From: a virus
Taxonomy: Duplodnaviria; Heunggongvirae; Uroviricota; Caudoviricetes
Length of the DNA stretch: 9,552 nucleotides
Direction: 5' to 3' (one strand)
Virus record (IMG/VR): IMGVR_UViG_2684622775_000004
Span: 1-9,552 of that record
Positions within the stretch are counted from its first letter, which is position 1. Each line of letters starts with the position of its first letter. The notes under the pieces are model-generated. The model saw only the letters and a list, made by a program, of their open reading frames with translations. It was not told where the DNA came from and ran no database searches. The position numbers and the translations under genes are program-made. Shown here one piece after another: positions 2,731 to 4,479 of the stretch.

Positions 2731-2885
2731 GTCGTTTGCACTGTCACATCTCAATGGTGGGCTGTGTGGGGGCGGAGCGATCCGCGCCGGTTCCTTTTTC
2801 CCGGTTACGCCAACCCTGCACAGTTCACCACCATACTGATTGGCGTCAGCAGTGGTGATGATTCACATAGAAAAAGGATCATCCT

Positions 2886-3374
2886 ATGGCTATTCAAATC
2901 TCAGTTGAAACTCTTTCCCCGATCACCCATAACCAAATCCCTGTCATTACTACCGAGCTTTTGGCACAACTTTATGGCACCGAAACTAATAACATCAAAG
3001 TGAACTATACACGCAATGCCGAGCGTTTTGTTTGTGGGAAACACTACTTCAAATTGGAAGGGGCTGAGTTGCGGGAATTTAAGAACAAGGTTACTCAAAG
3101 TAACTTAGTTGCACCGCGTACAAAGCACCTCATCCTCTGGACAGAACGCGGAGCAGCCCGTCACGCCAAAATGCTGGAAACCGATCAGGCGTGGGAAGTG
3201 TTCGAAAAACTGGAAGACTGTTATTTCAGCCAAAAACAACCACCAGCAGCACAAAACACCCCAACCCAAAATGATGGATGCGCATTACTGATCCACTTCG
3301 ATAAACACGGTCAGGTCGACTTCACGGAAAAACTACCCGCCGATGCGATGGTATGCACTCTGGAACGGTTTTAA
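2886..3374 (+). CDS. ORF6N-domain protein (KilA-N/antirepressor-like, DNA-binding), cargo gene
   Basis: ATG 2886 with AAGGA Shine-Dalgarno. The N-terminal segment ...TTELLAQLYGTETNNIKVNYTRNAERFVCGKHYFKLEGAELREFKN...LVAPRTKHLILWTERGAARHAKMLETDQAWEVFEKLEDCYF matches the ORF6N pattern (LA.lYG...N..rN..rF..G.hYF.L...EL..f......LwTE.G...ak.L....A) as recalled from memory. Pro/Gln/Thr-rich linker follows. Confidence 0.7.
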   Translation: MAIQISVETLSPITHNQIPVITTELLAQLYGTETNNIKVNYTRNAERFVCGKHYFKLEGAELREFKNKVTQSNLVAPRTKHLILWTERGAARHAKMLETDQAWEVFEKLEDCYFSQKQPPAAQNTPTQNDGCALLIHFDKHGQVDFTEKLPADAMVCTLERF

Positions 3375-3450
3375 AAATTTTCCCCGAACGCTTTACGATC
3401 GTAAAAAGTTGAATATCCTGTTAAGAGTGGTTACTACGCCAAACAGCTTA

Positions 3451-3475
3451 AACCCGCCACTGAGCGGGTTTTTTA
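3451..3475 (+). terminator. Intrinsic terminator: AACCCGC / loop CACTGA / GCGGGTT, then TTTTTTAT
   Basis: GC-rich hairpin plus T-run about 77 nt after the ORF6N gene stop. Confidence 0.65.
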
Positions 3476-3596
3476 TGCCTGAAAAACGGTACAGGACGTT
3501 AAACGCGCTGGTGGTTGCGAATACTGGTCTTTCGGCTTGTATTTTTGTAAATCGATATATACTTATCTTGTGACCAGTAATGTCAGGGCAATTGAT

Positions 3597-4340
3597 ATGA
3601 ATGAAGCTTGTTCTGTTGTTTTTGTTCATTCCCCGTTTGTTGTGCTCTTTGAAGGAAAAGAGCTCTCTCTGGAAAGTGGTAGTGCACTTCTTGTCAGGGG
3701 GGGAGCTGGATCGTTATTGCCCTTTTCGGAATGTTTTCGGCGAATAAGTCTCAGTGAATCGACAATTATCCGTTACCTGTTGTGTGGAGACGAAAAACAG
3801 GATGTAGTTTTAGTCCGGCAAATACCACGATATCTTTGCGTGAGTTTTCCCAAGGCAGAATTGATGGGCATCCTGATTGATTATCTTTGTGAGGAAAAGA
3901 TTCATACGGACAATTTAGCGGAAATGCTTTCCTTTTCGTGTCTGGCGTTTTTCTCATCAGAGAAAATGTTTTCGTCGTTTCTGACCGCGTGTATTGGCAA
4001 TATTAGTGACAGGCTTAGTGCATTGTTTCGTACGGACATTGCAGCAAACTGGACTCTGAGAGATGTGTCTTCGCGGTTATGTATCAGTGAAAGTTTGTTA
4101 AAAAAAAGACTGAAAGAAGAAGGCACCTGTTTCAGTGAGTTGTTGCTTACAGAGAGAATGAGAATGGCAGCAATGCTGTTGAATCAATCTCGTTGCGCCA
4201 TCAACAGAATCGCTGCTCAGTGTGGCTATAATTTTACATCTTATTTTATCAGCGTATTCAGGAGTTATTTTGGTGTTACACCGGCAGGTTACAGGATGGC
4301 TGCATTCAATGAGATGAGTTTAAGTGTTACTCAAGAATAA
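3597..4340 (+). CDS. AraC/XylS-family transcriptional regulator, AppY/PerA/YdeO-GadX-like
   Basis: C-terminal dual helix-turn-helix ...NWTLRDVSSRLCISESLLKKRLKEEGTCFSELLLTERMRMAAMLLNQSRCAINRIAAQCGYNFTSYFISVFRSYFGVTPAGY closely resembles the DNA-binding domains of AppY and PerA as recalled. The N-terminus MNEACSVVFV... parallels the AppY start, supporting ATG 3597 over the track start 3537. The gene is visibly AT-rich relative to its flanks. Confidence 0.85.
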   Translation: MNEACSVVFVHSPFVVLFEGKELSLESGSALLVRGGAGSLLPFSECFRRISLSESTIIRYLLCGDEKQDVVLVRQIPRYLCVSFPKAELMGILIDYLCEEKIHTDNLAEMLSFSCLAFFSSEKMFSSFLTACIGNISDRLSALFRTDIAANWTLRDVSSRLCISESLLKKRLKEEGTCFSELLLTERMRMAAMLLNQSRCAINRIAAQCGYNFTSYFISVFRSYFGVTPAGYRMAAFNEMSLSVTQE

Positions 4341-4365
4341 TTGAATTTTGCACTCATTGAAAACA

Positions 4366-4391
4366 GGCTCGCTGCGGCGGGCCTTTTTTAT
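4366..4391 (+). terminator. Intrinsic terminator: GGCTCGC / loop TGCG / GCGGGCC, then TTTTTTAT
   Basis: 7-bp stem (one G-U pair) with tetraloop and T-run, 26 nt after the AraC-family gene stop. Confidence 0.6.
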
Positions 4392-4479
4392 ATCCGCGCC
4401 ACGTCCGGCGCACATCACATCAGATAACACCACACAAAAGGTATCTGCGGGTGCCTTTGACGGGGTGTTGTTTTTTTAC

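Follow-up and report, generated by a model that had tools for sequence, protein, structure and literature searches.

In the immI operon of phages P1 and P7, a c4 antisense RNA is encoded together with the a1/b1 and a2/b2 target pairs, icd and ant. An RNA-gated antirepressor mechanism has been published for the antQ-isrK-orf45-anrP region of Gifsy-1 (PMC4825925). It has also been reported that the AraC-like regulators PsrA/PsrB and PatE of EHEC O157:H7 are encoded by prophages (reviewed in PMC10877973) and that DLP12 encodes AppY, an AR2 regulator of E. coli K-12 (PMC10057817). YdeO, AppY, PatE and PsrB are known to activate gadE/hdeAB (AR2) promoters. In a Stx phage, the distance between the late promoter PR' and the terminator tR' was mapped by dRNA-seq and Term-seq as 258 nt (PMC7547250).

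The window, i.e., the whole stretch of 9,552 nucleotides analysed here, contains a Q-to-lysis interval that can be compared with each of these systems, and all features given below lie on its + strand. The Q antiterminator (2229..2612, 127 aa) belongs to the Q21/QuuD family; it matches PF06530 at 176 bits and the Q21 structure in PDB (6p18) at an E-value of 2.6e-7, and it is 82% identical to QuuD of K-12 and 84% identical to the Q of Sakai Sp4. The lysis cassette (4520..5727) comprises two holins (PF16931 and PF05449) and a GH108 endolysin, as assigned by Pfam and by the RefSeq annotation of the related locus L001. Sakai Sp6 and L001 are both integrated at the potC site. The first-pass annotation had placed two cargo genes, for an ORF6N protein and an AraC-family regulator, between Q and the lysis cassette of a lambdoid prophage, and both the placement and the two domain calls hold in HMM searches; the two genes were not found at unrelated, non-prophage loci lacking linkage to Q or lysis genes. 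However, the interval is probably not one island but a mosaic of two independent modules, with the real late promoter of the phage lying in between. The first module (2617-3374) is likely a decaying isrK/C4 RNA-controlled antirepressor cassette, and the second a late-promoter block followed by an AraC moron of the acid-resistance type. Both modules are of kinds already known; this E. coli prophage interval is largely ordinary and does not represent a new kind of system. The AT-richness described earlier for the interval is modest and uneven: the AraC gene (GC 0.42) and the ORF6N gene (0.46) lie below the 0.50 of the whole window, whereas the leader (0.54) lies above it. Neither tRNA genes nor stx are present in the window.

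The first module begins 4 nt past the Q stop codon with a predicted sigma-70 promoter, PisrK (TTGACC-18-TATATT, 2617..2646), the sole consensus-like promoter found by a promoter scan within 2500-4600. Its -35 and -10 hexamers are invariant in Gifsy-1 and in the nin region of Stx phages; in the nin-region copy, ninE and not Q lies upstream, and the similarity stops just 5' of TTGAC. PisrK is followed by an isrK-like small RNA (2653..2727; Rfam RF01394 at 79.4 bits, gathering score 50), which carries the decoy sites b1 (2678-2684) and a1 (2692-2699), both complementary to the C4 loops, and which ends in an intrinsic terminator (2707-2727) detected by terminator scan and folding; in addition, the c4-a1b1 model RF03163 matches over 2640-2692 at 52.2 bits, with a gathering score of 46.7. 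The signals next to Q that had been read as pR'/tR' are thus the promoter and terminator of this cassette. Downstream lies a C4-type antisense RNA, the equivalent of STnc1160 (2750..2835), which matches RF01695 over the full model length at 74.0 bits (gathering score 45), folds at -43.5 kcal/mol (z -4.4) and presents the effector loops a' (2792-2800) and b' (2807-2813). It is overlapped by a 34-codon ORF (2754-2858), identified by ORF comparison as the counterpart of Gifsy-1 orf45, with a conserved MVG start and a stop codon 27 nt before the ant ATG. The loops are exactly complementary, over 7 and 9 nt, to the target sites b2 (2840-2846) and a2 (2870-2878); the latter, GAAAAAGGA, is the Shine-Dalgarno sequence of the ORF6N gene.

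The C4 loop and both of its targets covary, three-way, across three alleles, and at least three specificity alleles can be distinguished, with a = GAAAAAGG, TCACCG or GAAACCA and b = TTGGCGT or TTAGGAAC. Covariation was judged by duplex energies because MAFFT misplaces the variable a/b elements, which makes the counting of column pairs unsuitable. Across the alleles, the cognate loop–target duplexes are the most stable; these energies also count stem bases that pair inside the RNA itself, which makes only their relative values meaningful. These alleles provide a clean set of naturally covarying variants of a phage RNA switch for which P1/P7 and Gifsy-1 have been the only study systems so far. 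Many E. coli carry several copies of the isrK/C4 cassette. By analogy with P1/P7 immI and Gifsy-1 isrK-orf45-anrP, the cassette promoter would be constitutive, and most transcripts would end at the isrK terminator, yielding a small RNA with a1/b1; readthrough transcripts would carry the C4-type RNA, whose loops would bind a2/b2, covering the ribosome-binding site of the antirepressor and preventing its translation, while IsrK in excess would titrate C4 or remodel the leader, allowing the antirepressor to be translated.

The gene that would be controlled in this way, ant' (2886..3374), encodes an ORF6N antirepressor homologous to AnrP, with 162 aa compared with 186-187 aa. Its product matches PF10543 (ORF6N) at 77.2 bits over residues 12-96, is 60% identical to Gifsy-1 AnrP and matches the anti-repressor family PHROG 2379 at 263 bits, positions 1-163 of the 187 in the profile being covered. 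No canonical LexA box (CTG-N10-CAG) was seen by eye upstream of the gene. Compared with the full-length alleles of L015 and L020, ant' has lost its last 24 codons through an in-frame deletion of 72 nt between direct repeats, with the native stop codon retained. A frameshift as the origin of the short protein was ruled out by the cleanness of this deletion in the comparison with L015 and L020. PGAP annotates ant' as a pseudogene ("missing C-terminus"), and further lesions are present in the same allele lineage, namely an internal deletion in L029 and an IS insertion in UTAK-5. The PGAP call, the profile coverage, the 72-nt deletion and these lesions together point to a truncated and decaying gene, and ant' is most likely a decaying remnant.

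Whether the shortened protein could still function was weighed in the light of what has been retained and lost. The reading frame is open, the ORF6N domain and the conserved helix (residues 1-116) are intact, the 162-aa protein is identical in 12 genomes, the RNA control elements of the cassette are all intact, and the C-terminal tails differ among Ant proteins, all of which would fit an active antirepressor and a cassette working as an RNA-gated induction switch for its own or a co-resident prophage. However, the 24 lost residues contain the sole conserved C-terminal motif (GW.V.R..L...L), common to AnrP and the proteins of L002, L015 and L020, and this loss, the two other independent lesions in the lineage and the pseudogene flag make a still active Ant somewhat unlikely. 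With ant' taken as decayed, the cassette probably acts, if at all, via its RNAs alone. A wider, speculative proposal, which we hold to be unlikely as a whole, is that lambdoid isrK/C4 cassettes form an RNA-based heteroimmunity network in which copies with a decayed ant are kept as RNA-only modules, and that the interval between Q and PR' serves as a second moron slot. If this were true, IsrK and C4 of decayed cassettes would act in trans on cassettes of the same allele in co-resident prophages and so tune their induction, and the Q-to-PR' cargo slot would have its own, Q-independent expression logic.

The late promoter of the phage is probably located at 3392-3419, between the ORF6N and AraC genes, where a homolog of the mapped PR' of the Sakai Stx phages is found (-35 TTTACG, 16-nt spacer, -10 TATCCT; predicted transcription start at ~3426). 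The block was noticed through unexpectedly widespread matches of window positions 3392-3450. In the Sakai Stx2a phage, the aligned block has TTTACG-16-TATCAT exactly 258 nt upstream of the tR' terminator. The PR' motif is unique in the window (chance expectation 0.01), its hexamers fit 8 of 12 consensus positions, which is under the threshold of the promoter scan, and the block is found solely with Q21-type Q genes (17/17). At ~+25 to +50 of the predicted transcript lies a promoter-proximal hairpin with a U6 tail (3450..3475; -13.5 kcal/mol, z -2.8), which is conserved in DLP12, Sp4, Stx phages and L002, is present at 44 of 44 AraC loci and belongs to a conserved late-promoter block in ~3,000 E. 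coli genomes. With its U6 tail the hairpin resembles a terminator, and in Stx phages transcription evidently passes beyond it. The first-pass annotation had assigned each of the two genes a terminator of its own; the one behind the AraC gene stands, whereas the 3450-3475 hairpin exists but belongs to the PR' block and not to ORF6N. Rfam gave no match over 3392-3475, and when the sequences downstream of Q in Sp4, Lambda_2G7a and L002 were compared with the window by BLAST, only chance-level matches resulted.

A different assignment would make PisrK the Q-dependent late promoter, the isrK terminator tR', IsrK the counterpart of lambda 6S RNA and ORF6N a late cargo gene. In the window and in Gifsy-1 the -35 begins 0-4 nt past the Q stop codon, leaving no space for another promoter, and PMC4825925 does not map a late promoter for Gifsy-1, which is inducible. 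Nevertheless, PisrK and the cassette also occur in the nin region of Stx phages, ~3 kb upstream of Q, the PisrK cassette follows Q proteins of differing families, and the separate homolog of a mapped PR' strictly tracks Q21-type Q; moreover, the PR' block is set apart from Q by inserted cargo elsewhere too, by nmpC in DLP12 and by a CAAX protease gene in Sp4. PisrK as the late promoter is therefore very unlikely. With 3392-3419 as the probable late promoter, ORF6N lies upstream of PR' and has its own promoter, and its transcription by Q-dependent readthrough from the late promoter is therefore not to be expected; of the earlier proposal that both genes occupy an stx-type moron slot read by Q, the part on the position of the AraC gene stands and that on ORF6N does not. 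With these two cases and the window cassette, the Q21/Q933 family appears to accept cargo in the stretch that separates Q from PR'. For annotation, a promoter and terminator right after Q need not be pR'/tR'; the late promoter of this Q family can lie hundreds of bases to >2 kb downstream, past inserted cargo, and which morons are co-induced with lysis depends on its position.

The second module carries a gene (3597..4340) for a 247-aa AraC/XylS-family regulator of the YdeO/PatE/PsrA/AppY clade, with HTH_18 at 51.3 bits and HTH_AraC at 49.6 bits. The ATG at 3597 is the RefSeq start and agrees with the N-termini of the paralogs, and a longer version starting at TTG 3537 is unlikely. HTH_AraC matches in two stretches, indicating a C-terminal double helix-turn-helix, and the DNA-binding domain of GadX (3mkl) is matched at an E-value of 2e-22. 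The NCBIfam YdeO model is matched over its full length at 146.9 bits, below the equivalog cut-off of 348, so the relationship is that of a paralog and not of an ortholog; the protein also matches PHROG 1450. End-to-end BLASTP identity is 39% to ECs_0287, 37% to YdeO, 35% to PsrA and 30% to AppY, and identities of 30-39% to characterised regulators do not fix the regulon; EnvY and YbcM align over the DNA-binding domain only. ECs_0287 is taken to be PatE by its position in OI-8/Sp1 and its length. A search of genome contigs found no close relatives of the protein in other species.

Behind the AraC gene lies an intrinsic terminator (4365..4390) with an 8-bp GC-rich stem and a U6 tail (-17.8 kcal/mol, z -4.1). 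An rsmX candidate at 4308-4387 was rejected, its Rfam score being at chance level. A further terminator-like hairpin (4480..4501), found by terminator scan and folding directly upstream of the holin ribosome-binding site, had been absent from the earlier list. As had been suggested, the Q-to-lysis interval was compared across relatives, and its cargo varies: besides loci with the AraC gene and without ORF6N, a DNA methyltransferase gene (L013) or tRNA-Gly (L011) is inserted between homologous halves of the gap between the two terminators, making this gap one more site of cargo insertion in relatives. Because the second module starts at the PR' homolog and runs into the holins (from 4520), with the AraC gene downstream of that promoter and ORF6N upstream of it, the AraC gene is, as judged from its position, a classic late-operon moron in the stx-type slot. 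It would be at most weakly expressed in the lysogen, and on induction the Q-modified RNA polymerase would read through the terminators and transcribe it strongly.

Since YdeO, AppY, PatE and PsrA/B act in this way, family membership makes host acid-resistance genes of the gadE/hdeAB type, together with other H-NS-silenced genes, the most likely targets of activation by the AraC protein. The strictest linkage of the gene is to the PF16931 and PF05449 holins just downstream, which persists across antiterminators, endolysins (GH108 or M15) and backbones, and which might suggest that the protein regulates phage functions, such as the adjacent holin/lysis genes and lysis timing, and not host acid resistance. 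However, all characterised relatives (YdeO, AppY, PatE, PsrA/B) target host AR2 or LEE genes, relatives are found beside unrelated neighbours (tRNAs in Sp4, an IS fragment in Sp1, the b region in ev099), and some relatives of the locus have extra cargo between the AraC gene and the holins; such a phage-directed role is hence very improbable. The AraC gene adds a further allele to the prophage-borne YdeO/PatE/Psr family, by which acid-resistance and virulence regulation in E. coli is rewired, and it could affect gastric or rumen survival. The allele comes mainly from bovine, farm and environmental isolates rather than from O157.

The ORF6N and AraC genes do not generally travel together. They occur jointly in 13 of the 65 complete genomes carrying the AraC gene, all representing one near-identical recombinant, while the AraC gene is found without ORF6N in ~52 of the 65 and at 30 of 44 viral-contig loci; conversely, ORF6N-type ant cassettes without AraC are found in Stx phages and Gifsy-1. 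The AraC gene follows at least four antiterminator types (Q21-type, 273-aa, ydfT-type and DUF1133), is in the moron position in 6 of 6 annotated genomes and, among the 44 viral-contig loci, at each one with a detectable antiterminator or holin, and precedes the same holin pair wherever a downstream holin is detectable. Because the AraC gene is mostly without ORF6N, follows varied antiterminators and is combined with it in a single recombinant, the two genes are neither a functional nor an evolutionary pair but an accidental juxtaposition, and the functional two-gene regulatory module proposed at first falls away. The remark that they form no described standard pairing is true in this sense only, as both halves have been published (Gifsy-1 isrK-anrP, PMC4825925; PsrA/PatE, PMC10877973). 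Although they are adjacent, on the same strand and both between Q and the holins, in a combination that is at least 99.7% identical in 12 complete genomes and is found on a second phage backbone in UTAK-5, it is extremely unlikely that they constitute a single regulatory cargo unit past pR'/tR', co-transcribed by Q-antiterminated readthrough, given that each occurs elsewhere without the other, that the PR' homolog falls between them, that ORF6N is truncated and decaying, and that the PADLOC defence models match AraC not at all and ORF6N only weakly at domain level (26-37 bits to the candidate PDC-S05 over the ORF6N domain), which leaves a defence role unsupported.

Compared with Gifsy-1, the first module has in common the order of Q, an own promoter, isrK with its terminator, a C4-type RNA with a small ORF and an ORF6N antirepressor; the cassette is located between Q and the lysis genes in both, and the same three Rfam families match. 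The differences are that the window Q is of the Q21 type with 127 aa, whereas that of Gifsy-1 belongs to a different family with 225 aa; that the a-specificity element is GAAAAAGG instead of TCACCG; that orf45 overlaps the anrP start codon, whereas the window ORF ends before the ant ATG; and that the window Ant lacks its last 24 residues and no isrJ follows the cassette. With P1/P7 immI, the cassette shares matches to the C4 and a1b1 models and the arrangement of two loops and two target pairs, one of them over the ribosome-binding site, and its allelic specificity switches resemble P1/P7 heteroimmunity. Unlike immI, however, it has no icd homolog, its Ant is an ORF6N protein and not P1 Ant1/2, it lies in a lambdoid prophage, and its upstream target segment doubles as a terminated small RNA (IsrK).

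The second module is close to PsrA/PatE, with which the AraC protein shares a length of ~240-250 aa, an N-terminal "CSV" motif, the C-terminal double helix-turn-helix and 35-39% identity; PsrA of Sp4 is in the same Q-to-lysis slot, behind the Q that is 84% identical to that of the window. It is, however, a distinct allele and a non-ortholog, and effector or pch genes are absent nearby. YdeO is its best NCBIfam match over the full length, and AppY is likewise prophage cargo; as to location, AppY is encoded in the b region and YdeO on the chromosome, whereas the window gene is in the Q-to-lysis slot. Similarly, window positions 3392-3475 are ~81% identical to the Stx-phage block with the mapped PR' and proximal hairpin (StxS; PMC7547250), and the Q proteins of the window and of Stx phages belong to one family. 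The Stx-phage block extends over the Q stop codon, and a 258-nt leader, tRNA genes and stx come after it, whereas in the window the 780-bp cassette lies between Q and the PR' block, the body of StxS is absent, and the AraC gene follows.

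The sequence in the window comes from an E. coli lambdoid prophage, of which it covers the late-regulatory and lysis region. Pfam searches place DUF968 at 764–1852, RusA at 1865–2236, the Q antiterminator (PF06530, 176 bits), the ORF6N gene ant' at 2886–3374, the AraC-type regulator gene at 3597–4340 and, 3' of the latter, two holins, a GH108 endolysin, Bor and DUF1398; the domain assignments of the two cargo proteins, already proposed in the first-pass annotation, are real (ORF6N, 77 bits; HTH_18, 51 bits, and HTH_AraC, 50 bits). Q is of the Q21 family (PDB 6p18, E 2.6e-7), with 82% identity to K-12 QuuD and 84% to Q of Sakai prophage Sp4, and no tRNA genes were found in the window. 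The VG35A2 prophage beside potC is 100% identical to window 2600–4460; identity is at least 99.4% from RusA through DUF1398 (1853–6923) and merely 81–83% in the DUF968 region (581–1852), and the DUF968/RusA junction marks a sharp mosaic boundary between the two. Sakai Sp6 shares with the VG35A2 prophage the integration site beside potC and an equally long integrase gene (1119 nt) in matching position, while the Q types and Q-to-lysis cargo of the two are entirely different (Sp6: nanS-p esterase). At 6924–9373, an IS66-family element (tnpA 7001–7405, tnpB 7402–7749, transposase 7798–9336) lies within the 5' part of the minus-strand DUF1398 (ybcV-like) gene; its flanks join up in VG35A2 with an 11-nt overlap, which is consistent with a target-site duplication, and VG35A2 has an IS3 element at the matching place. 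Between the endolysin and bor (5728–6044), a gene for an Rz/Rz1-type spanin is neither evident nor annotated, and the sole ORF of at least 40 codons (5910–6053) is without lipoprotein features; the prophage may have no spanins or an unrecognised one.

In the spacer between Q and ant', the Rfam scan gave three families, each above its gathering score: isrK (2653–2727, 79.4 bits), the C4 a1/b1 targets (2640–2692, 52.2 bits) and C4 antisense RNA (2750–2835, 74.0 bits). The only consensus-like promoter of the region (TTGACC-18-TATATT, 2617–2646) has its predicted start at isrK position 1, and the terminator at 2707–2727 is that of isrK; these are the signals that had been read as pR' and tR' beside Q. 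The −35 and −10 elements are invariant among the window, Gifsy-1, which has a different Q family upstream, and Stx phage P27, in which the promoter sits in the nin region with ninE upstream; similarity in the cassette alignment stops immediately 5' of TTGAC. On this alignment, the promoter is the cassette's own and not that of Q.

The RNA switch has been kept intact, and its specificity differs between alleles. The C4 loops at 2792–2800 and 2807–2813 are exact complements of the isrK sites 2692–2699 and 2678–2684, and are also complementary to 2870–2878 and 2840–2846 just upstream of the ORF6N gene, where 2870–2878 is its Shine-Dalgarno sequence. Three C4/IsrK specificity alleles were found in which loops and both target pairs co-vary (L020 2936–3215; L005 34074–34353, minus strand; window 2617–2888): the Gifsy-1 allele has the "a" loop CGGTGAT and TCACCG at both targets; the window and P27 have TCCTTTTTC with targets GAAAAAGG(A); and L020, a comparison locus with a full-length antirepressor, has a = GAAACCA and b = TTAGGAAC, both elements being altered, again with loop and both targets changed alike. 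Cognate pairings give the best duplex energies; the L020 C4 segment pairs with its own isrK at −30.5 kcal/mol and with other isrKs at −18.6 and −19.8. L020 agrees with the window in Q, junction and PR' block but carries a different cassette allele, 78–80% identical, and whole cassettes are therefore swapped at a fixed position. These alleles are a natural covariation series and deserve note.

The ORF6N protein (162 aa) is 60% identical to Gifsy-1 AnrP, and its match to PHROG 2379 "anti-repressor" is limited to profile positions 1–163 of 187. Full-length alleles (L015 and L020; 186–187 aa) run on with KFYLEQ(H/R)GWIVARKEQLVERLMR(F/L). L020 has Q, junction and downstream DNA in common with the window, which shows that ant' is the product of a clean loss of 72 nt between two short direct repeats, GGTTTAAATTTT and GCTTTAAAAATTTT. 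The gene is annotated as a pseudogene by PGAP; in UTAK-5 the same ant' allele carries an IS66-family insertion, and in the viral contig L029 (3472–3777) a further internal in-frame deletion removes residues 85–145, leaving a 101-aa product. These three lesions, which are independent, argue for a decaying antirepressor gene. Residues 1–116 are nearly invariant among relatives, and the 162-aa protein may keep residual activity.

Of 5,426 E. coli genomes, about 3,000 have a match of about 85% identity to window 3392–3450, the segment just 3' of the deletion joint. Together with a proximal hairpin (window 3392–3475; L014 3501–3582; L010 38138–38225; L016 1111–1192), this block lies between nmpC and essD in K-12 DLP12 and about 1 kb downstream of Q in Sakai Sp4, and overlaps the Q stop codon in the Stx phages P27 and Sakai Sp5. 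In Sp5, the end of the GCCAGCC...GGCTGGC-U6 terminator is exactly 258 nt downstream of the predicted start of the block promoter (TTTACG-16-TATCAT), and it has been reported from dRNA-seq and Term-seq that the PR'-to-tR' distance is 258 nt (PMC7547250); Sp5 positions differ from the published coordinates by a constant 142 nt. The hairpin has a U-tract and is terminator-like; Stx-phage transcripts nonetheless reach +258. The window holds a single copy (TTTACG-16-TATCCT, 3392–3419), against 0.01 expected by chance. Among 44 viral-contig loci with the AraC gene, the block is confined to Q21-type antiterminators (17 of 17) and absent behind DUF1133, ydfT-type and 273-aa antiterminators, the pattern expected of a cognate Q/PR' pair; in L002, whose Q has 273 aa, the same hairpin follows another promoter (TTGATT-17-TAAATT). 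From this distribution and the homology to a mapped PR', the elements of the window are therefore arranged as Q, isrK–C4–ant' cassette, PR' with proximal hairpin, AraC, two terminators and holins. Of the proposed late-operon cargo, only the AraC gene would thus lie inside the late operon, with the ORF6N gene predicted outside. In the Q21/Q933 family, inserted cargo often parts the PR' block from Q: nmpC and IS5 in DLP12, a CAAX protease gene in Sp4 and the isrK–ant cassette in the window, a recurrence that deserves note.

The claim that each gene has its own terminator holds for AraC (4365–4390, −17.8 kcal/mol, z −4.1), a good intrinsic terminator, but the hairpin assigned to ORF6N (3450–3475, U6 tail, z −2.8) is the PR'-proximal one. 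A third hairpin lies at 4480–4501, and the short interval that separates it from the AraC terminator (4391–4479) is a further cargo insertion point, occupied by tRNA-Gly in an ETEC prophage (L011 4745–5690) and, in STEC308 (L013 4745–5870), by a DNA methyltransferase pair. The supposed AT-rich island is modest for AraC (GC 0.42) and ORF6N (0.46) and does not extend to the Q–ORF6N spacer (0.54; whole window 0.50).

The AraC gene most likely starts at ATG 3597 (247 aa), because this is the RefSeq start and residue 1 aligns one-to-one with paralogs. Of 5,426 complete genomes, 65 carry alleles with at least 90% nucleotide identity, and a one-genome-per-species scan found no close relative. In every sampled context with identifiable neighbours, an antiterminator stands on one side and the same PF16931 and PF05449 holin pair on the other. 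No consensus promoter was found from the hairpin to the gene, and expression probably comes from leakage past the hairpin, a weak or activator-dependent promoter, or Q. The protein aligns end-to-end with YdeO (37% identity; 147 bits in NCBIfam, against an equivalog cut-off of 348), Sakai ECs_0287 (Sp1/OI-8, presumably PatE; 39%), PsrA (35%) and AppY (30%), and phage Lambda_2G7a has a 37% identical relative immediately upstream of its holin. It has been reported that all characterised clade members activate gadE/hdeAB-type acid-resistance genes and that some repress LEE (PMC10877973, PMC10057817); by analogy, the former is most likely the role here.

AraC and the ORF6N cassette occur together only in 12 complete genomes and the IS-disrupted UTAK-5 copy, all at least 99.7% identical. 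The domain calls of the first-pass annotation are correct and its regulatory signals misassigned; its paired island consists of two modules of known type that lie side by side by accident, and each half has a published counterpart. For the AraC half, PsrA of Sp4 occupies the same Q-to-lysis slot. For the ORF6N half, the cassette follows logic identical to that of P1/P7 immI, and its membership of this RNA family is regarded as established. In Gifsy-1, the identical trio of RNA families stands in the same order between Q (STM2617) and the antirepressor AnrP (STM2616), after which come cargo and, next, the lysis genes; experiments there showed that transcription from PisrK yields both the sRNA IsrK, which is terminated, and a readthrough mRNA that is translationally silent, that IsrK in trans opens the leader for translation of orf45 and then anrP, and that AnrP increases Q expression and triggers prophage induction (PMC4825925).
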